A DNA stretch of 64,000 nucleotides from Deinococcales bacterium. GTDB taxonomy: Bacteria; Deinococcota; Deinococci; Deinococcales; JAAFIG01. The notes beneath the pieces were generated by a model that did no database searches, was not told the DNA's origin, and saw nothing but the letters and a program-made list of their open reading frames with translations. Positions 54,533-64,000 of this stretch are shown piece after piece. A program made the translations under genes and the position numbers. Numbering within the stretch: the stretch's first letter is position 1; the number at the start of each line of letters is the position of its first letter. The stretch is taken from NCBI GenBank assembly GCA_031414595.1, contig JANNVX010000018.1:137111-201110 (forward strand), read 5' to 3'.

Positions 54533-55519
54533 ATGAAAGCTACTCAGAAAAAAACCATTCGTTTACAACAAGTACAAAAACTGCTCGAGGCTGCACCACG
54601 CACTTACCAAGACCTTTGTAATCGGCTCGAGATAGACCACTCACCAGCCAGTATACGGGCTTTACAACGTGATTTAACCGATCTTACCAACCAAGGTTTT
54701 GAGATTACCTCTCAAGCAACACGCCCTGAGAAGTTCAAAATTACCAAAAGTCCACCGCCACGCATGAAACCCGACGAAGCCCTTGCTGCCCATATCGCTT
54801 TGCGTCTGCTGTACCACCACTCGAGCAACCCACCAAAAAGTTATCAGAACGCCCTCGAGAAGATTTTACTGACCATGCCACCGCAAATGCAGCAAATCGC
54901 CAAGCAGTCCATGCCCAACAACCAAGGTACAGAAGAAAAATTCTTTGAATTTGAAAAAATTGCAAATTGTTGGACAAAACGCCAAACTATCCACTTTGAT
55001 TATCTGGCATTAAGTACCAGCAGTCAAAAACCCCATAAGACCGAACTCGAGATTTATTTTGTAGAAATTTCCAGAAGCAACTTTGAAATATATGTGATTG
55101 GACGCAGAATTAACCACCCACCTTATGAAGTCAGAACATTTATGCTCAGCCTGATGAAAGGCATTACGCCACTCGGTCAGCACTACGAAATACCACTGGA
55201 TTTTGACCCACAAGTCTTTTTATCCGATGCTTGGGGGGTGATTGGCAACCGTGAGTCTATGTTAGTGCGGCTAAAATTTGACGCTAGTGTACGGCGCTGG
55301 CTCGAGAACAGACGCTTTCCGGGGGTCAAGCACCGTCAAACCGATGAAGAGGGTAATTATATTCTGACGATTGAAATTGGGGTCAACAGTAAAGGCGAAC
55401 CGCAAGAACTGATGCCGTTTATTCGGGGCTGGGGTGCAAAAGTTGAGGTTCTCGAGCCGCAGGGGTTACGGCAACGGTGGCTCGAGGATGCGCGGGAAAT
55501 TTTACGGAGGTACGAATGA
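54533..55519 (+). CDS. HTH-WYL-WCX transcriptional regulator
   Basis: R.LQRDL HTH; IYVIG..VRTF; F.P..FL..AWG; WGAKVEVLEP. Confidence 0.9.
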   Translation: MKATQKKTIRLQQVQKLLEAAPRTYQDLCNRLEIDHSPASIRALQRDLTDLTNQGFEITSQATRPEKFKITKSPPPRMKPDEALAAHIALRLLYHHSSNPPKSYQNALEKILLTMPPQMQQIAKQSMPNNQGTEEKFFEFEKIANCWTKRQTIHFDYLALSTSSQKPHKTELEIYFVEISRSNFEIYVIGRRINHPPYEVRTFMLSLMKGITPLGQHYEIPLDFDPQVFLSDAWGVIGNRESMLVRLKFDASVRRWLENRRFPGVKHRQTDEEGNYILTIEIGVNSKGEPQELMPFIRGWGAKVEVLEPQGLRQRWLEDAREILRRYE

Positions 55520-57705
55520 AACCAGAGTATGCGGCACACACGCCACGCGACGCAAAAGACCCTAATTCACCTTGGCACGAATTGCTTGAACATTTGGAAA
55601 CGGTGGCAAAAGATGCGGCTGTGTTCGCCAGTAAATTCGGTGCAGCCGAAATTGCACACTGGGCTGGAATGCTTCATGATACAGGGAAATTTAGCAGTGC
55701 TTTTCAAGCTTATTTATGGGAAGCTCATATTGCAAAACGCGATGACAAATCACAACCAGAGAAAGGCAAAGCACCTCACGCAATGACAGGTGCTGTCATC
55801 ACAAGACTTTTTGCCTTAAATGATGAATTGGCAACAGGCTTAGAGTTGCCTTGGGTTATTGCAGCACATCATGCAGGGCTAAAGTCTAAAACTGATTTAC
55901 TCGATAGTATCAAAGAAAAAAGCGAAACTGCTTTAGTACAAGACGGTGTGCAAAAAGCCTTTAGCTGGAAAAAATTAGCATTACTAACACAAGAAAATTT
56001 TGAATTTCCACAAACTCACTTCAAAACAAAACTTGAGCGCGAATTTTTTGTCCGAATGTTGCTCAGTTGCTTGGTGGATGCAGACCATTTAGATACTGAA
56101 GCCTTTGGTAGCCCACACAAAAGTAAAATTCGAGGGGAAGATAAAATTCCTTTAGAAACCTTACTTGACAAGTTAAAATCGGCACAGCTTGAGAAAATAG
56201 CTCAGGCAGAACAAAATGAAGTTAATATAATTCGTGCCGAAGTTTACTACCGAGCTTTAGAACGCGCTTCTGAATCGAAAGGTTTTTTTAGACTCAGCGT
56301 TCCTACAGGTGGTGGAAAAACCAGAAGTTCGCTTGCATTTGCGCTACAACACGCCATTTTGCATAACCTTGAACGAGTCATTTATGTTGTGCCGTATTTA
56401 ACAATTACACGCCAAATCGCACAAGATTTTAGCGAAGTTCTTGGTGCAGAAAATATTCTTGAGAGTCATAGCGGCGTTCAACATGACCCAAATGAAGGCG
56501 AAACTTGGACTAAATTAGCGGCAGAGAACTGGGATGGAAAGATTATTGTCACAACAGGCGTACAATTCTTAGAGGCTTTATTTGCTCGGAAACCGTCTAA
56601 GTTACGAAAACTACATCGAATCAGCCGAAGCGTAATTATTTTCGATGAAGCACAAACCCTTCCTGCGCCGTTATTAACACCAATTATGGATGTTTTGCAT
56701 CAAGTAGTAGATACTTACCACTCGAGTATCGTATTTTGCACAGCAACACAACCAGCCCTAGATTCGGGAAGCGGATTTCCAGATTTACAGAGCCGAGAAA
56801 TTGCACCAGACCCGAACCGTCTTTTTCGGAATCTTGAGAGGGTAAAGTATCAATTTTCGTGGGAGGCGTGGGATTGGCAACGAATTGCAAAAGAATTGGT
56901 TCAACATCAGCAAGTGCTTTGTGTGGTCAATACCAGAGCGCACGCTCGAGCTATTTTTTCGGCGCTGAATGACCCTGAAGCAATTCATTTAAGTACCCAT
57001 TTATGCGGCGCTCATCGTCAAAGACAAATCGCAAAAATTCAAACAAGACTCGAGCAAAAACAACCATGCCGCGTAATTTCCACCCAATTGATTGAAGCAG
57101 GAATAGACCTTGATTTCCCAGTTGTGTACCGAGCTTTTGCACCGTTAGATAGCATCGTACAAGCTGCTGGTCGCTGTAACCGTAACATGAAATTGTACCC
57201 AGAAAAAGGTTTAGTGGTGGTTTTTCAGCCAGAACAACTAGGTTTACCTAAAGGCGTTTATGAAGCTGCGACCCATAAAACCCAAAGCTGGTTACGCAAA
57301 GGAATTGACTTAAATGCTGCCGATACATTTCATAAATACTTTACTGAATTGCATAACGCCACGGATACGGATGCCCGTAAAATTCAGAGTCTACGCCAAG
57401 ATTTTGATTACCCGAATGTTAGTCAAGAATTTCGTGTAATTGAGGATGATACTGAAGCTGTTTTGGTAAGACAATACGCTCCTGAAATTGTCGCAGCTAT
57501 TCTTAGCCAACCATTTAACCGTCAAACAATGCGAAAATTACAACCTTACCTTGTGAATGTCTTCAAAAAACAACTCGAAAAACTAGACCGCGCTACCCTG
57601 ATTCGACCTTGTGCTGAACACCCCGATTTGCTTGAGTGGGTTGGTAAATACGATGACAACTTGGGAATTCTCGAGGAGGTGAACGTGGAAATGACCGTGA
57701 TGTAA
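55516..57705 (+). CDS. cas3: CRISPR helicase/nuclease Cas3
   Basis: L.EHL, LHDTGK, HH, LVDAD, PTGGGKT, DEAQ, TAT, QAAGRCNR. Confidence 0.97.
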   Translation: MKPEYAAHTPRDAKDPNSPWHELLEHLETVAKDAAVFASKFGAAEIAHWAGMLHDTGKFSSAFQAYLWEAHIAKRDDKSQPEKGKAPHAMTGAVITRLFALNDELATGLELPWVIAAHHAGLKSKTDLLDSIKEKSETALVQDGVQKAFSWKKLALLTQENFEFPQTHFKTKLEREFFVRMLLSCLVDADHLDTEAFGSPHKSKIRGEDKIPLETLLDKLKSAQLEKIAQAEQNEVNIIRAEVYYRALERASESKGFFRLSVPTGGGKTRSSLAFALQHAILHNLERVIYVVPYLTITRQIAQDFSEVLGAENILESHSGVQHDPNEGETWTKLAAENWDGKIIVTTGVQFLEALFARKPSKLRKLHRISRSVIIFDEAQTLPAPLLTPIMDVLHQVVDTYHSSIVFCTATQPALDSGSGFPDLQSREIAPDPNRLFRNLERVKYQFSWEAWDWQRIAKELVQHQQVLCVVNTRAHARAIFSALNDPEAIHLSTHLCGAHRQRQIAKIQTRLEQKQPCRVISTQLIEAGIDLDFPVVYRAFAPLDSIVQAAGRCNRNMKLYPEKGLVVVFQPEQLGLPKGVYEAATHKTQSWLRKGIDLNAADTFHKYFTELHNATDTDARKIQSLRQDFDYPNVSQEFRVIEDDTEAVLVRQYAPEIVAAILSQPFNRQTMRKLQPYLVNVFKKQLEKLDRATLIRPCAEHPDLLEWVGKYDDNLGILEEVNVEMTVM

Positions 57706-57709
57706 GACG

Positions 57710-57793
57710 GGCGCATCAGAGGGTGTACCATGATGCGCCACATGAGAAACAACAGGTCTTTCACTATTTCAATCCTCGCTTAATAGCGAATAC
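57710..57793 (-). ncRNA. Solitary crRNA-like regulatory RNA (CreR/CreA-like)
   Basis: Pseudo-repeat ending CGAGGATTGAAAT, guide AGTGAAAGACCTGTTGT matching 57820-57836, 3' GC hairpin. Confidence 0.8.
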
Positions 57794-57806
57794 AAGTTTA
57801 CACTGA

Positions 57807-57858
57807 AGTATAACAAAGTACAACAGGTCTTTCACTAAGAATTAAACTATGCTATGTT
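57807..57858. promoter_or_regulatory. Overlapping divergent promoters containing the guide target
   Basis: Minus: GTGAAA-N17-TATACT with TG extension; plus: TTCACT-N16-TATGTT with TG extension. Confidence 0.6.
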
Positions 57859-57865
57859 GACTGGC

Positions 57866-58054
57866 ATGACCTACTCCACATCACCCCAAATCTTAGTTGA
57901 TACCGCTCATGACTGCTTTTCAAAAGCAATAGATGCTTCTGTCTGTCATGATTGTCCGCATTCTACAGCCCTCAAGGAGCAGTGGCGATTGGAGATTTTG
58001 GAGGAAATACATTTTAGAAATATGGATAGTGGCGAATTCAGTGAAGTTGATTGA
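57866..58054 (+). CDS. Small leaderless ORF (62 aa), function unknown
   Basis: ATG 7 nt after TATGTT; contains CHDC; ends 29 nt before cas5. Confidence 0.45.
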   Translation: MTYSTSPQILVDTAHDCFSKAIDASVCHDCPHSTALKEQWRLEILEEIHFRNMDSGEFSEVD

Positions 58055-58083
58055 CCGAAAACTCAAGAAAGGAGTGTGAAACC

Positions 58084-58788
58084 TTGCCAACCAATAATGC
58101 TATTCGTCTAAAAATCTCGAGTGACTTTGCTTGCTTTACTCGCCCTGAGAACAAAGTAGAGCGTGTTTCTTATGATGTCATCACACCAAGCGCGGCTCGA
58201 GGTGTGTTAGAAGGTATTCTCTGGAAACCCGAAATGCGTTACCGAATTACCGAGATTTGGGTTTTGAAACCAATTAAGCGATTTTCTATTGTCCGTAACG
58301 AAATTCAAAACCTTATCGTACCCAAAACAGCCAAAGGTTGGGCGCAGAACGGAGCAGGAGGATATGCGGCTGACGACAACCGTACACAACGCCACTCGCT
58401 TATTTTACGTGATGTAGAGTACATTATTCATGCCGAAATAGACTTGATGCCTCGAGCCAGTGACCCATTGCCTAAGTATCTGGAAATGTTCTCACGCCGA
58501 GTCGAAAAAGGGCAGGCGCACCGAATGCCATATTTAGGCAACCGAGAATTCACAGCCAGTTTTGAACCTGTGAACGGTTCGGAAAAAGCAATACCAGAAG
58601 ACAACGAATTAGGCAGAATGCTGTTTGATCTTGAATTTGCGACCCAGAAAAAAGGTGGCATCAGTTTTAAGCAACACACTCCAAACGGTAGCACATGGGT
58701 GGATGGCGTGGCTAAACCTAAATTTTTTCGAGCCAAACTCGAGCAGGGCATTTTGCGTGTGCCACAAGAATTATATGGGGGTATCTGA
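58084..58788 (+). CDS. cas5: Type I-C Cas5 (Cas5d)
   Basis: FACFTRPE.KVERVSYDVITPSAARG, LRDVEY, YLG.REF; AAGGAG RBS before TTG. Confidence 0.97.
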   Translation: MPTNNAIRLKISSDFACFTRPENKVERVSYDVITPSAARGVLEGILWKPEMRYRITEIWVLKPIKRFSIVRNEIQNLIVPKTAKGWAQNGAGGYAADDNRTQRHSLILRDVEYIIHAEIDLMPRASDPLPKYLEMFSRRVEKGQAHRMPYLGNREFTASFEPVNGSEKAIPEDNELGRMLFDLEFATQKKGGISFKQHTPNGSTWVDGVAKPKFFRAKLEQGILRVPQELYGGI

Positions 58789-60587
58789 TGCTGCTTGAGC
58801 AATTGGTGGCATATGCCGAACGCCTTGAACGAGATGGGAAATCCCTACCTTTTATGTACCAAGAAACAAACGTACCTTGGGTGGTTAAGCTCGATTCAAC
58901 AGGTCATTTTCTTGACCTTGAAAGAACCTCCGATGGGCTTGGTAAAAAAGCAGACCGAGGTAAACCATTACCTGTTCCTAAAATTAAGCGCACAGGCGCA
59001 AAAGCCGCCTTGCTTGCGGATGACCTTGAATATGTTTTTGACCTTGCTATGCCAGAAGATACGCCTGAGATTCGGAGTAAAGCCCTTGAAAAGCGACAAT
59101 TATTTCTCGAAGAAACTCGAGCTTGTTTGGCTGCCACAAAAGACCTAAATGTTCAAGCAGTTCTGACCTACTTAGAGCAATTACCCGAAAACACGCCAAT
59201 TTTTCCTGAAGGAACAACCCCAAAAGACAAAGTAACCTTTGAAATAGAGGGGCGCAAAGTAACAGCCTTAGAGCTAGTACAAGCATTTTGGGCAAGCAAA
59301 TACTCGAGTGAAGATGACCACGAAACACCAAGCACCAAAGATGCTGCCTTGATTACCGAATGTCTGATTACAGGAAAAATTGGTGCGGTAATGCGTCGTG
59401 AACCAATGCCGATTAAAGGTGGTTTAATCCCCGATGGGCATACCGCCGGTATGGGTTTTATCAGTGCCGATAAACCAGCTTTTGAATCATATGCCCTTCG
59501 TAACTCCGAAATCGCACCTGTTCGTACAGAGGTCGCCGTAAAATATGCAACCGCACTGAATACTTTACTCTCAGATGCTAAAACACATTTACGGGTTTCC
59601 CCTGTGGTTTTTGCATTTTGGACTCGAGCAGTAGAAACCCCAGATGTTGTTGGGTTTCTCAAAAAACCAAATGGTCATGAGCTTTTGACCAAATACCTGA
59701 GTGGGCAAAGTGTTAAGAGTGAAATCAAAAGCTCCCGTACAAGCCAGCACGTTAAAAAACATATTTCCAGTGCTTTTACGGGAAATATATTTGATGACCT
59801 TGAGCCAGACGAATTTTATTGTGTTTGCCTATCAGCTTATACAAGTCGTGTGGTTGTTAGAAATCATATTACCAGTACCTTGCGAGAAGTTGGCGAGAAT
59901 TTAGCAGTTTATATAGCCACACAAAACTTAATTGATACTGAGCCAATGGGTGTATTTGAACTTGCTGCCAGCTTGTATCGAGATGCCAATAAAGAACAAA
60001 CAGCGCAAACCGTTAATGTCTTGCTTGGGTTTGCACTTGAACGTACACCGTTGCCACAACATTACCTAAATAGCCTTTCCAAACGCAATCGAGCCGAACA
60101 ACGAATCACCAAGCCTCGTGCTGTACTCACCCGCATGACTTTAATATCACTGGAGGAAATAGAAATGGATGAACTTATTGCTTTACAACCCGACCATCAA
60201 AGCCCCGGATACCAACTTGGGCGCTTAATGTCTGCCTTGGAAAATCTGCAATGGATGGCACTGGTCAAATATGGCAGCAGCAGCAAAATCAATACCACTG
60301 TCACCGACAGATTTTACGGCTCAATCTCGAGTACGCCTGTTTTGGTCTTTGCGAATGTCATGGCAGGCGCACAAGACCACCTCTCGAGAATCCGCAAATC
60401 TGACCCTGCGGCTCATTACGGAGAGGATACGCGGTTACAACAAATTCTAGGGCAACTTAAAACCATCCCAGAAGTGCTTGAACCTACAGACCAAGCCTTT
60501 TTTAGTCTTGGCTACTACCACGAAAAAGCAGATCGTTTTGCCCGAATTCAAGATGCAAAAGAAGCAAAAAAGGAGAACCAATCATGA
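58788..60587 (+). CDS. cas8c: Type I-C Cas8c/Csd1
   Basis: LL.D..EY, CLITG, AFESY, GYQLGRL, F.LGYYHE. Confidence 0.95.
   Translation: MLLEQLVAYAERLERDGKSLPFMYQETNVPWVVKLDSTGHFLDLERTSDGLGKKADRGKPLPVPKIKRTGAKAALLADDLEYVFDLAMPEDTPEIRSKALEKRQLFLEETRACLAATKDLNVQAVLTYLEQLPENTPIFPEGTTPKDKVTFEIEGRKVTALELVQAFWASKYSSEDDHETPSTKDAALITECLITGKIGAVMRREPMPIKGGLIPDGHTAGMGFISADKPAFESYALRNSEIAPVRTEVAVKYATALNTLLSDAKTHLRVSPVVFAFWTRAVETPDVVGFLKKPNGHELLTKYLSGQSVKSEIKSSRTSQHVKKHISSAFTGNIFDDLEPDEFYCVCLSAYTSRVVVRNHITSTLREVGENLAVYIATQNLIDTEPMGVFELAASLYRDANKEQTAQTVNVLLGFALERTPLPQHYLNSLSKRNRAEQRITKPRAVLTRMTLISLEEIEMDELIALQPDHQSPGYQLGRLMSALENLQWMALVKYGSSSKINTTVTDRFYGSISSTPVLVFANVMAGAQDHLSRIRKSDPAAHYGEDTRLQQILGQLKTIPEVLEPTDQAFFSLGYYHEKADRFARIQDAKEAKKENQS
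60165..60587 (+). CDS. cas11: Internally initiated Cas11 small subunit (in frame with cas8c)
   Basis: GGAGG 8 nt before an in-frame ATG (MDELIAL...GYQLGRL). Confidence 0.75.
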   Translation: MDELIALQPDHQSPGYQLGRLMSALENLQWMALVKYGSSSKINTTVTDRFYGSISSTPVLVFANVMAGAQDHLSRIRKSDPAAHYGEDTRLQQILGQLKTIPEVLEPTDQAFFSLGYYHEKADRFARIQDAKEAKKENQS

Positions 60588-61471
60588 TTCATTTAGATGC
60601 CAGCAAACGCCACGATTTTGTACTTTTCTTTGATGTCTTAGATGGCAACCCAAACGGCGACCCAGACGCAGGAAATTTGCCACGAACTGACCCGCAAACA
60701 GGTCAAGGACTGGTAACTGATGTTGCCATAAAGCGCAAAATTCGCAATTATGTAGACGAATTACACGGAGTAGAAGAACGCTTCAAGATTTATGTGCAAC
60801 AAGGTGCAATTTTGAACAATCAAAACACTCGAGCTTACACTGCCCTTAATATCAAATCCAAATCCAAAGAAGAAAGTCCAGGGGTACGTCGTTGGATGTG
60901 CGAAAACTTTTTTGATGTTCGGGCATTTGGGGCAGTCATGAGTACAGAAGTCAACTGTGGACAGGTGCGAGGACCCGTACAACTGACATTCTCGAGAAGT
61001 GTAGACAGAATTCTGCCATTGGATGCGGCGATTACTCGAGTTGCTTTAACCAAAGCCGACGAAAAAAACACAGTTAAAGGTGACGATGGAGAAGATACTG
61101 CCCGAAGTGGAACAATTGGACGAAAAGCCTTTATCCCATATGGTTTGTATGTGATGCACGGCTATTATGTCCCAAGTTATGCCAAGGACACGGGTTTTGA
61201 TAACACAGACCTCGAATTACTTTGGAAAGCCCTGATGAATATGTGGGATTTAGACCGAAGTGCCAGCCGAGGGCAAACTGCTTGCCAAGGTTTATATGTC
61301 TTTAGTCATGACAGCGCTTTGGGGAATTATCCAAGTCAGCAGCTTTTCAAACGAATACAACTTGAGAAAGTTGGTGTGGCTCGAGAATTTGCTGCCTATA
61401 AAAATGGGTTGGTTATCAATGATACTGAACTACCAAACGGCGTGACTCTGACGCGCTTACTCGAGGGGTAA
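60584..61471 (+). CDS. cas7: Type I-C Cas7/Csd2
   Basis: GNPNGDPDAGNLPR, TDVAIKRKIRN, FFDVRAFGAV, GQVRGPVQ. Confidence 0.98.
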   Translation: MIHLDASKRHDFVLFFDVLDGNPNGDPDAGNLPRTDPQTGQGLVTDVAIKRKIRNYVDELHGVEERFKIYVQQGAILNNQNTRAYTALNIKSKSKEESPGVRRWMCENFFDVRAFGAVMSTEVNCGQVRGPVQLTFSRSVDRILPLDAAITRVALTKADEKNTVKGDDGEDTARSGTIGRKAFIPYGLYVMHGYYVPSYAKDTGFDNTDLELLWKALMNMWDLDRSASRGQTACQGLYVFSHDSALGNYPSQQLFKRIQLEKVGVAREFAAYKNGLVINDTELPNGVTLTRLLEG

Positions 61472-61475
61472 AACC

Positions 61476-62114
61476 ATGAACGAACCCTCCCAAATTCCCC
61501 TTTCGAGCCTGATGCACTACGCCTACTGCCCACGCCGTTGCGCCCTGATTCACCTCGAGAACATCTGGGAGGACAACGAATACACCGCCAAAGGCACACG
61601 CAGCCATACTCGAGCCGATGAACCGACCATCGAATTACTCGAGGGAATCCGAATCGAACGCGCCTTACCGCTTTTTAATGATGCCCTCGAGTTAAGTGGT
61701 CGTGCCGATGTGGTCGAGTTTATGCCTGACGAAACACCATTTCCTGTTGAGTACAAAAGCGGTAAACGCAAAAAAAGCCCAGACCCCGAAACCGCTAATC
61801 TCGAGAAACTCTGCGATGATATTCAGCTTTGCGCCCAAGCCCTGTGCCTCGAAGAAATGCTCGAGATTCGTGTCCCAAAAGGCGCGATTTACCATATTGC
61901 CAGCAAACGCCGCCGCGACATTGAATTTAGCCCAGCCTTACGAACCCGAACCTTGGAAGTGATCGAGGCAGTGCGAAGCCAATTGCAAAGCGGTATCACT
62001 CCCGAACCTGTCAATGACCAACGTTGTACCCATTGCAGCCTACAAAGTGCTTGTATGCCCAGTGTGCGAAATCTCGAGACTTCTGACCCATTCTTGCCCG
62101 AGGAGATGTCATGA
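61476..62114 (+). CDS. cas4: Cas4
   Basis: YCPR, G.ADVVE, PVEYK, QLCAQ, C..CSL...C. Confidence 0.97.
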   Translation: MNEPSQIPLSSLMHYAYCPRRCALIHLENIWEDNEYTAKGTRSHTRADEPTIELLEGIRIERALPLFNDALELSGRADVVEFMPDETPFPVEYKSGKRKKSPDPETANLEKLCDDIQLCAQALCLEEMLEIRVPKGAIYHIASKRRRDIEFSPALRTRTLEVIEAVRSQLQSGITPEPVNDQRCTHCSLQSACMPSVRNLETSDPFLPEEMS

Positions 62115-63145
62115 ACCAAGCCCTAAACACGCTTTATATTCAAACCCAAGGGACGTATCTGCACTTGGAGCATGACGCGATAAAAATCGAAGTAGACCGA
62201 GAAGTCAAAGCCCGCGTGCCGCTTCATCATTTAAGCAGCATTGCCGTGTTTGGCAATGTTCTGATAAGCCCGTACTTAATGGCGCGATGTGCCGATGAAG
62301 GACGCGATATTTCTATTCTGACCGAATGGGGGCGTTTCAAAGCTCGGATTCATGGTAGCACCACCGGTAATGTGCTTTTACGCCGCGCTCAACACTTAGC
62401 GCTTGATAATCCAGAACGTTGCTTGGCAATAGCCAAAAGATTTATTGCAGGAAAAGTCCAGAATACTCGAGGCACGTTAATGCGAGCCGCCCGCGAAAGC
62501 AATGACCCAAGCGACTGGACAACGCTTCGTAATGCCAGCACAGACTTAGAACAGAGTTTGCGCCACACCAAAAATGCCCTCAACCTCGAGGAGTTACGCG
62601 GGATAGAAGGCAACGCTGCTCGAGTCTACTTTGGGGCATTTAGCAGTTTAATCCGCACCAACCGACTGGACTTTGAATTTCTCGAGCGCAGTAAACGCCC
62701 ACCTCGAGACCCGATTAACGCCTTACTATCGTTTATTTACGCCCTTTTAACCGCCGATTGTGTAGCTGCGCTCGAGGGCGTGGGACTCGACCCACAGATG
62801 GGATTTTTACACGTTTTACGTTCTGGACGACCTGCGCTGGCACTGGATTTAATCGAAGAGTTTCGCAGTTACATCGCTGATAGGTTGGCATTAACCTTGA
62901 TTAACCGCTCGCAAATCACAATCAAAGACTTTGATGAACGTACTGGCGGCGCATGGGGATTAAATGAAAGCGGGCGCAAAACTGTGTTAATCGAGTACCA
63001 GACGCGCAAAAAACAAGAAATCACCCATCCGATTACCCAAAGTATCATTCCGATTGGACTTATCCCTCATATCCAAGCTCGGTTACTAGCTCGGCACTTA
63101 CGCGGCGACTTACTCGAGTACCCGCCATTTATCCCCAAGGTTTAA
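62111..63145 (+). CDS. cas1: Type I-C Cas1
   Basis: LNTLYI, GNVLLRRAQ, RGIEG, RPPRDPINALLSF, GFLH, DLIEEFR. Confidence 0.98.
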   Translation: MNQALNTLYIQTQGTYLHLEHDAIKIEVDREVKARVPLHHLSSIAVFGNVLISPYLMARCADEGRDISILTEWGRFKARIHGSTTGNVLLRRAQHLALDNPERCLAIAKRFIAGKVQNTRGTLMRAARESNDPSDWTTLRNASTDLEQSLRHTKNALNLEELRGIEGNAARVYFGAFSSLIRTNRLDFEFLERSKRPPRDPINALLSFIYALLTADCVAALEGVGLDPQMGFLHVLRSGRPALALDLIEEFRSYIADRLALTLINRSQITIKDFDERTGGAWGLNESGRKTVLIEYQTRKKQEITHPITQSIIPIGLIPHIQARLLARHLRGDLLEYPPFIPKV

Positions 63146-63146
63146 G

Positions 63147-63437
63147 ATGGACATACTGGTTTGTTACGATGTCAACACCGAAGAACGCGAAGGCAGGCGG
63201 CGCTTACGTCAGGTTGCCAACGCCTGTAAGAGCCTTGGGCAGCGCGTCCAGAAAAGTATTTTTGAATGCCGTATTAACGACATGCAGTACCAAGCCTTTT
63301 TGGTCAAGCTCGAGAAAATCATTGACCCAAAGACCGATTCGCTACGCCTCTACCGATTACGCGCTCCTCGAGAAGACAATTTAGATGTCCTTGGAATAGA
63401 CTCATATGTAGACTTCGACGACCCCCTGATTATTTAG
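63147..63437 (+). CDS. cas2: Cas2
   Basis: LVCYDV, GQRVQKSIFEC, DSLRLY. Confidence 0.98.
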   Translation: MDILVCYDVNTEEREGRRRLRQVANACKSLGQRVQKSIFECRINDMQYQAFLVKLEKIIDPKTDSLRLYRLRAPREDNLDVLGIDSYVDFDDPLII

Positions 63438-63624
63438 CGCCTGTGTGCGCGAACCCCCAGTGCTAACGGAAACCCCGTCAGGTTCGCGGCAATCAAAAAC
63501 CTCATTCAGCACGAGAACCTTGACAGTCGAATAAAAAAAGAGGAAAATAAAACGGTAATAAACGGCAAGGTTCGCGGGAAACCGCAAGAAAACAGCGTGA
63601 ACAACGAGTTCCGCGAAACCTACT
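63438..63624 (+). promoter_or_regulatory. CRISPR leader
   Basis: GCGAACC...GGTTCGC inverted motif, further GTTCGCG/GTTCCGCG copies, TTGACA and an A-rich tract. Confidence 0.75.
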
Positions 63625-63733
63625 GTCGGGCGCGGTTTCGATTGCGCTCGAGGATTGAAACATGTTATTTTTGAGTTTACCGACATCAAAACCAGCGTTG
63701 GGTACGGGTTCACTCGTACTCGAGGATTGAAAC
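63625..63733 (+). CRISPR. Two 37-nt repeats flanking one 35-nt spacer
   Basis: GTCGGGCGCGGTTTCGATTGCGCTCGAGGATTGAAAC (63625-63661) and GTTGGGTACGGGTTCACTCGTACTCGAGGATTGAAAC (63697-63733). Confidence 0.9.
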
Positions 63734-63899
63734 GGAGTTAGGAGATCGAATAGTGGTTCGCCGAAAAAATGGCGTATTTGACGACCTCGAGCGTGAATTA
63801 GGTACACTTTCGTGAATATGATTTCGGTTTCAAAATGAAATCGGAGACTATCTTGTCAAAACTAATAGACGTTATCGGAAATTAGGATAAACTATTCGA

Positions 63900-64000
63900 G
63901 TGCTGCATTACGACAAACTCGTCAAGAATAAAACTCGCTTCTTAGCCCTGACTGGACTAACCAAAAAAGAATTCCAAGCCTTACTTCCATACTTTCAAGA
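63900..64000 (+). mobile_element. 5' end of an IS5/ISL2-like transposase (partial)
   Basis: MLHYDKLVKNKTRFLALTGLTKKEFQALLPYFQ fits the F..LTGL...EF..LL N-terminal HTH pattern; TAAACT 6 nt before GTG. Confidence 0.7.

Follow-up and report, generated by a model that had tools for sequence, protein, structure and literature searches.

A candidate crRNA-like autoregulatory unit between cas3 and cas5c of a Deinococcales type I-C CRISPR-Cas locus

In CRISPR-Cas loci belonging to type I-C, solitary repeat units (SRUs) between cas3 and cas5c encode CRISPR RNA (crRNA)-like RNAs (crlRNAs) of 48-50 nucleotides (nt), which carry an 11-nt handle, have their 3' end in a hairpin loop, and repress cargo ("CRISIS") promoters through about 16 base pairs (bp) of pairing (10.1101/2024.12.27.630466). 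The CreR guides, which derive from degenerated mini-CRISPRs, are validated for subtypes I-B, I-E and V-A and predicted for I-C, and in Haloarcula two promoters flank one CreA target (10.1101/2023.03.10.532045). Regulatory mini-arrays next to cas3 are widespread, with an enrichment for I-E, I-F1, I-D and I-B; the term I-C is absent from the main text of that survey (Shmakov et al., 10.1101/2023.03.03.530964 = PMC10120712).

Here we describe a cassette related to these systems in a 64,000-nt stretch of DNA from an uncultured Deinococcales bacterium, referred to as the window. The cassette lies in the 378-nt gap between cas3 and cas5c and consists of a minus-strand pseudo-repeat, a guide (pseudo-spacer), a 3' hairpin, a target that repeats the start of the guide, and a small open reading frame (ORF). 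Its anatomy, its conservation and the co-variation of guide and target are established. It is probably a regulator of the CreR / type I-C crlRNA (SRU) kind, in which Cascade would be guided to a site between two divergent predicted promoters, repressing both the unit's own gene and the operon formed by the small ORF, cas5, cas8c and cas7.

The unit and its target

The pseudo-repeat reads GTATTCGCTATTAAGCGAGGATTGAAAT on the minus strand (57793->57766), and its last 13 nt are identical to both array repeats at 12 of 13 positions. The 12-nt repeat end GAGGATTGAAAY has exactly three perfect sites in the window, namely the pseudo-repeat and the two array repeats; with one mismatch allowed there are four sites against 0.66 expected, a number reached in 0 of 100 shuffles. 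In the whole 4.49-Mb assembly the perfect sites number four, the fourth lying within a coding frame on contig C13. The pseudo-repeat folds into a 6-bp stem; its end is in register with those of the 11-bp stems formed by the array repeats. Beyond the guide, the arms of the 3' hairpin (57710-57718 and 57731-57739) pair over 9 bp with 100% complementarity, and handle, guide and hairpin together fold with a z-score of -3.4. This hairpin is not claimed as a degenerate second repeat, its alignment to canonical repeats being unconvincing. A search of Rfam with 57600-63900 gave no match at E-values up to 1.

The target is one copy of a direct repeat in which 57749-57766 equals 57820-57837 exactly, over 18 nt that comprise 17 guide bases and the last repeat base. 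For an 18-nt exact repeat within 801 nt the chance expectation is about 5e-6, and the 11-mer seed of the guide occurs in the assembly only in the guide and target copies. An initial annotation of the window had described the hairpin pseudo-repeat with its 12/13 repeat end, the 9-bp hairpin, the exact recurrence of the first 17 guide nt and the CTT located 5' of them on the minus strand; all four stand as described, and its guide of roughly 24 nt counts 26 nt (57765->57740), or 24 if the last GT is given to the hairpin unit.

Co-variation of guide and target among related loci

Cas5c was searched in 61 genomes (the assembly containing the window, G000, and 60 relatives), with matches in 23 genomes and 16 loci at 45% identity or above. 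Leaving aside L011 and L015, these 16 loci fall into two sets by their cas3-cas5 gap: it measures 378 nt in the window and 383 nt in L005, against 39 nt in L002 and 11-38 nt in 11 loci. The same cassette is present in three further loci: that of G009 (L005/L031), a genome of another genus with a 70% identical Cas5, and two near-identical metagenome contigs, L032 and L033. With a profile built from five small-ORF proteins, 1 of 280 pattern matches was confirmed in the genome collection, the G009 locus alone, and 2 of 572 in the metagenome collection (L032 and L033). From cas3 onward, L005 holds the hairpin, guide, pseudo-repeat, target, promoter and small ORF, placed as in the window; downstream of cas2 it has a normal array, in which at least eight identical 37-nt repeats share the same terminal 15 nt. 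A 230-nt contig from X5 carries a variant of the cassette with 20 substitutions and one deletion. In L033, the sequence past the guide (1-110) is unrelated to cas3.

The initial annotation had proposed related cas3-cas5 gaps as the place to look for the duplication and for covariation of its two copies. Both are found there: G009, L032 and L033 each hold the cassette with a cognate guide-target pair, and the pairs co-vary across three lineages. Over positions 1-18, guide and cognate target agree at 17 positions in the window, 15 in G009, 18 in L032 and 17 in L033, while non-cognate pairings between lineages (n=10) agree at 8-13 of 18. L032 and L033 are counted as one lineage, because they have the same target and guides differing at one position; their cross-match is 17-18. 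The guide of the window is colinear with that of L032; 6 of the first 17 positions differ between them, and the targets mirror all 6. The guides of G009 and L032 have 3 mirrored differences. Cognate mismatches are confined to position 6 (L033) and positions 12 and 14 (G009); positions 6 and 12 are unpaired in Cascade (10.1101/2024.12.27.630466). In every copy the complementarity stops at 17-18 nt, half of a 35-nt spacer. The flanking non-coding DNA has diverged across the three lineages, while guide and target change together.

Each guide matches its own target best. The pattern is the one that selection for Cascade binding without cleavage would predict, and neither drift nor a protein operator would be expected to yield it. 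The loci form a clean natural co-variation series, with three lineages of the same architecture and different guide-target pairs, and provide independent, non-experimental support for the mechanism.

The pseudo-repeat is conserved in the same loci. The motif GAGGATTGAAAT is invariant across all four cassette copies, the 11-nt handle is constant, and the stem is kept in 4/4 copies, a G-U pair preserving it in L032. In 3/4 copies (window, L005 and L032) a 3' hairpin starts 26-27 nt past the handle, although the hairpin sequences are unrelated. These features bear on the idea of a functionless fossil, according to which drift would have kept an inverted mini-array in decay, its spacer being self-derived and the duplication a recent accident. 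The run-down state of the locus would suit such an origin, with only two diverged repeats in the array and an insertion sequence (IS)-like frame after them at the contig end, as would the non-canonical protospacer-adjacent motif (PAM). Set against it are the invariance of the handle, the joint change of guide and target over three lineages with diverged non-coding flanks, the constant distance from handle to hairpin, and the restriction of mismatches to positions 6, 12 and 14. Drift would not preserve a cognate identity of 15-18/18 against a non-cognate identity of 8-13, and a fossil is highly improbable.

The two 17-18-nt copies could also be a pair of operators to which a regulatory protein binds, such as the WYL/WCX protein encoded upstream of cas3, with the likeness to the repeat being incidental. 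A WCX-domain regulator gene does lie directly upstream of cas3, and direct-repeat operators occur in bacteria. However, one copy always begins exactly at the end of the handle, and the copies are non-palindromic and of a sequence that is not conserved between loci (8-13/18), whereas a conserved regulator would need conserved operators. The handle and the hairpins would also be left unexplained, and we give this explanation hardly any weight.

The cassette has been lost in close relatives. In the sister species G007 (L002, Cas5 96% identical) it is deleted: the left hairpin arm remains, followed by 8 unrelated bases. A metagenome contig from X6 has the same deletion junction as L002, 57720 being joined to 58068. 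The second I-C locus of G007, L030 (G007:C154), has a 168-nt cas3-cas5 gap (1456-1623) with a terminator-like hairpin and the C-terminal half of the small ORF alone; as this ORF has no start codon and no pseudo-repeat is present, L030 is a decaying relic of the cassette. In a Cas5 tree, a single clade with support of 100/99 unites the loci that bear the cassette (window, G009, L033) with the scarred locus and two loci that lack it. The simplest history is one gain of the cassette followed by repeated loss.

Table 1 Coordinates of the cassette and of the surrounding type I-C locus in the window.
Feature	Position	Strand	Details
Predicted 3' hairpin/end of the crlRNA, probable cas3 transcription stop	57710..57739	-	GC-rich inverted repeat; 9 bp, 12-nt loop, no U-tract
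Pseudo-spacer (guide), 26 nt	57740..57765	-	positions 1-17 (57765->57749) identical to the target
Pseudo-repeat	57766..57793	-	stem-loop 57790->57775; predicted 11-nt 5' handle AGGATTGAAAT at 57776->57766
Candidate -10 boxes of the crlRNA promoter	57795..57812	-	TAAACT 57800->57795; TG-extended TATACT 57812->57807; prediction
Target	57820..57839	-	17-nt protospacer 57836->57820; PAM-position trinucleotide CTT 57839->57837
Predicted small ORF/cas5 operon promoter	57830..57858	+	-35 TTCACT 57831-57836 (16-nt spacer) or TTTCAC 57830-57835 (17-nt spacer); -10 TATGTT 57853-57858
Conserved small ORF	57866..58054	+	62 amino acids, isoelectric point (pI) 4.6; belongs to no known family; the gene next downstream of the target
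cas3 (HD nuclease and helicase)	55477..57705	+	ORF list; Pfam Cas3_HD, DEAD, Cas3-like_C_2; convergent with the crlRNA gene; stop 4 nt before the hairpin
cas5c / cas8c / cas7 (Cascade genes)	58084-58788 / 58788-60587 / 60584-61471	+	Pfam Cas_Cas5d, Cas_Csd1, Cas_Cas7
CRISPR mini-array (repeat reference)	63625..63733	+	two 37-nt repeats and one 35-nt spacer

Promoters, PAM position and the small ORF

All promoter calls are consensus predictions, and it is at this strength that the placement of the target over the -35 boxes of two divergent promoters, made in the initial annotation, holds. On the minus strand, the candidate -35 boxes of the crlRNA gene, TTGTAC (57823->57818) or GTGAAA (57835->57830), are both predicted inside the target, and a promoter scan calls GTGAAA-17 nt-TATACT. 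Immediately upstream of the pseudo-repeat hairpin the copies share a TAnAnT box, which reads TAAACT in the window, TAGACT in L005 and TATAAT in L032/L033. On the plus strand, the predicted -10 TATGTT is located 7 nt before the ATG at 57866, a leaderless geometry, and the best -35 is again inside the target. This geometry fits the order Deinococcales, as 60% of the mRNAs of Deinococcus deserti are leaderless (PMC4007540). In L005 and L032, the target abuts a good candidate promoter of the form TTGACT-17 nt-TAGATT or TACTCT, with the -10 located 6 nt before the ORF start position. The minus-strand and plus-strand -35 boxes both overlap the target, and therefore one Cascade footprint would cover both promoters.

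We infer transcription of the unit, its processing by Cas5c, its loading into Cascade, repression, the absence of cleavage and the co-transcription of the small ORF with cas5, in the following form. A short minus-strand RNA would begin at or just upstream of the pseudo-repeat hairpin, and Cas5c would cleave it 3' of this hairpin, leaving the 11-nt handle AGGAUUGAAAU. Handle, 26-nt guide and 3' hairpin would be loaded into Cascade (Cas5c-Cas8c-Cas7), and the first 17 guide bases would pair with 57820-57836, over the predicted -35 boxes. The bound Cascade would exclude RNA polymerase from both promoters, thereby repressing the crlRNA gene and the genes from the small ORF to cas7. Cas3 should not cut, because so short a match would not allow a full R-loop. 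The resulting negative feedback loop would steady the level of Cascade, and expression would be released when crRNAs titrate Cascade or anti-CRISPRs block it. The initial annotation had Cascade repress the cas5-8c-7 transcript and its own RNA; the comparative evidence supports the core of that reading, and the transcript would begin with the small ORF, which had been overlooked, and not with cas5.

The trinucleotide at the PAM position is CTT in the window and GTC in L005, L032 and L033, and the canonical TTC is found in no locus. In an interference screen of Legionella pneumophila I-C, CTT is one of six PAMs with 95-99.5% protection (PMC5602111). The I-C Cascade reads the PAM with two residues only, one of them poorly conserved (10.1101/2022.06.15.496202). 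In L005 and L032, GTC is the complement of GAC in the -35 hexamer TTGACT. The eight spacers of the G009 array had no match in phage genomes by blastn, and hence gave no PAM readout.

Several observations weigh against the proposed autoregulation. Validated I-C crlRNA targets have TTC or TTA (10.1101/2024.12.27.630466) where CTT or GTC stands here, and GTC is outside the seven best PAMs of the Legionella pneumophila screen (PMC5602111). The promoters are consensus guesses. In the window the plus-strand -35, whether TTCACT or TTTCAC, is a weak one, and no plus-strand promoter was called at the small-ORF site by the automatic scan. The scan also called no terminator at the 3' hairpin, which has no U-tract. 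L033 is without the 3' hairpin, and its fold z-score is +0.2. The cassette is dispensable, being deleted in G007 (L002) and on the X6 contig and absent from 11 other Deinococcales I-C loci. The independent lineages number only three, L032 and L033 being near-identical. Among the 10 listed runs with DNA of the locus there is no RNA run, all being of DNA or of unrecorded kind.

The small ORF is presumed to be co-transcribed with cas5, cas8c and cas7: the scan found no terminator-like site in 57400-58300, the ORF abuts or overlaps the cas5 start, and its stop overlaps the cas5 start in L032. The 62-residue product of the window and the 70-residue product of G009 are 36% identical over 47 residues. 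When 1.84 billion representative proteins were searched with a profile, 6 relatives emerged (E 2.5e-21 to 3.3e-9). All eight proteins of the family have 60-90 amino acids, a pI of 4.1-4.7, an acidic tail and the pattern LD.AQ.CFENA.D..GCR.CP....LEQQ.HLE.LE. Within the order (363 genomes), its only matches are in G000, in G009 and in the relic of G007. Pfam, NCBIfam and PADLOC hold no match to the protein, and the searches of PHROGs and of the PDB sequences gave none below E 0.07 and E 0.49, respectively; the ESM Atlas gave no usable match, a word-index protein search gave no candidate, and tblastn of the G009 homologue (P0002) against phages gave none. It is acidic and hydrophilic, without a membrane segment, and its AlphaFold model has two helices and a mean predicted local distance difference test (pLDDT) score of 58. 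In L032 (535-567) and L033 (~236-268), the start position of the family reads ACG with the frame open, and translation would start 10 codons on, at TTG or ATG. The small ORF appears to encode an undescribed family of tiny acidic proteins, found only with the cassette, and is a candidate cargo gene.

A conserved non-Cas ORF as the first gene past the target also raises a different reading, in which the crlRNA would serve mainly as a safeguard of the CreTA/CrePA type. It would silence a toxic or abortive-infection small ORF; upon loss of Cascade or its inhibition by an anti-CRISPR, the protein would be made and the cell would stop, and the autoregulation of cas5-8-7 would be a side effect. The published I-C pattern places crlRNA-controlled cargo between cas3 and cas5c (10.1101/2024.12.27.630466), a type I-F protein toxin is under CreA control (10.1101/2024.01.05.574328), and the cassette is gained and lost as a unit, as the deletion scar of L002 and the relic L030 illustrate. 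On the other side, the database and phage searches listed above gave no toxicity link for the protein, which is acidic and hydrophilic with no membrane segment, and the ancestral start reads ACG in L032 and L033. The small ORF looks like a part of the cas operon, because it abuts or overlaps the cas5 start. Lineages without the cassette keep intact cas genes, and any addiction would therefore be weak. A safeguard as the main function is unlikely.

Autoregulation of Cascade, which we prefer, leaves room for a further and speculative suggestion, which we regard as doubtful. The acidic protein of 60-90 amino acids may be the point of the cassette, either as a minimal "CRISPR-supervised" effector released on inhibition of Cascade (a toxin, or a sentinel like CreP) or as a host brake that binds Cascade; in addition, the guide of the relatives would be hard-wired to the -35 hexamer, as TTGACT on the other strand gives GTC and a guide beginning with AA, and Cascade would then accept a non-TTC PAM for binding-only regulation. 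The idea of a host brake could draw on the charge and size of the protein, which are comparable to those of the acidic anti-CRISPRs known to occlude the PAM site of Cascade in I-C.

The host locus and comparison with described systems

The window forms the terminal part of contig C18, in an assembly of 4.49 Mb and 120 contigs, and DNA of the locus is found in freshwater-sediment metagenome runs. By ORF list and Pfam, a complete type I-C CRISPR-Cas locus (cas3, cas5c, cas8c, cas7, cas4, cas1, cas2 and repeats) spans 54533-63733. The order is a WCX-domain regulator, cas3, the 378-nt gap, cas5c, cas8c, cas7, cas4, cas1, cas2, the leader and the mini-array; cas5c starts with TTG, preceded by AGGAG. 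The WCX-domain protein (WYL-regulator type, 328 amino acids, 54533-55519) is encoded directly upstream of cas3, the ORFs overlapping. It is a likely protein regulator of the I-C locus, and an ORF of 364 amino acids occupies the same position in G009. A second, distant Cas5 homologue (36% identity) is located on C14:54804-55400.

The array repeats lie downstream of cas2, at 63625-63661 and 63697-63733, and both end in CGAGGATTGAAAC. They differ at 10 of 37 positions, the 11-bp stems being kept in both through compensatory changes. The second repeat is followed by 36 nt and then by a merely faint third repeat. At the contig end, an open frame (63895-64000) reads ...HYDKLVKNKTRFLALTGLTKKEFQALLPYFQ and runs off the contig; it resembles the beginning of an IS transposase, and such an element may have cut the array short or interrupted the assembly. 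The single array spacer (63662-63696) has a core of 15-17 nt (positions about 8-29) in common with three other places in the genome: C67 ~6680, C69 ~6771 and C18 ~16450. This sharing exceeds chance for one spacer, and a conserved gene motif is likely because the matches are not at the seed. The spacer was considered as a regulator and ruled out, its partial matches elsewhere lying mid-spacer.

Other CRISPR arrays, with different repeats, occur in G000 on contigs C11, C82, C99 and C101: C11 has one 11-mer in as many as about 28 copies, while C82, C99 and C101 have repeats in which GTCTCGAGAC occurs. The palindrome CTCGAG is about 24-fold over-represented in the assembly (base composition predicts 972 copies in 4.49 Mb, and 23,235 are present, one in about every 193 bp). 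The motif resembles a highly iterated palindrome and is seen throughout 57300-58400 of the window and in L002-L005 and L032. Nearly absent from the assembly are GGGCCC (0), TGCGCA (2), GACGTC (3) and CGATCG (3), each against roughly 800-970 expected.

With the I-C SRUs the unit has much in common: the subtype, the position in the cas3-cas5c interval, a palindromic-stem pseudo-repeat with the conserved repeat 3' end, an 11-nt handle (predicted here), a 3' hairpin, and mismatches at positions 6 and 12. Further shared are the PAM-proximal complementarity of about 16-18 bp and, both predicted here, a target beside the -35 and a non-Cas gene under the target promoter. An SRU follows its cargo and directly precedes cas5c, whereas the unit described here is antisense to the cas genes, upstream of the cargo and convergent with cas3. 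The predicted promoter of the unit itself is also overlapped by the target, one acidic ORF of 62 amino acids takes the place of a defence system as cargo, and the PAM position holds CTT or GTC in place of TTC or TTA. The SRU hosts are Neisseria and its like, in contrast to a Deinococcales metagenome-assembled genome here.

With the CreR guides, the unit shares a degenerate repeat with a short guide, both located between cas genes, a partial match next to the presumed promoter of the effector genes and, as we infer, autorepression of Cascade; unlike them, it lacks a canonical PAM and has a small conserved ORF that separates the promoter from cas5. With CreTA and CrePA (10.1101/2024.01.05.574328, 10.1101/2023.03.03.530964), it shares a crRNA-like gene that adjoins a small non-Cas gene and targets the promoter of that gene within a cas operon. 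Unlike their toxins, the small ORF is unrelated to known families and apparently co-transcribed with cas5. The regulatory mini-arrays offer a fourth likeness: a repeat-like unit next to cas3 with opposite (here predicted) transcription, a seed by the better-conserved repeat, a spacer shorter than those of normal crRNAs, and a target beside the presumed promoter of the effector operon.

In conclusion, this kind of switch is already known, and the element presented as hidden in the initial annotation has published counterparts (10.1101/2023.03.10.532045, 10.1101/2024.12.27.630466), from which it differs in orientation, likely self-repression, PAM position, host lineage and cargo. The known picture is unchanged, with one example and one candidate cargo gene added to it. 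With this locus, crRNA-like autoregulation in type I-C would reach an uncultured lineage of the Deinococcales. Its interest to specialists lies in the CTT or GTC at the PAM position in place of TTC, in the undescribed acidic protein family with which the controlled operon would begin, and in a single target that apparently serves two divergent promoters, that of the guide itself included.

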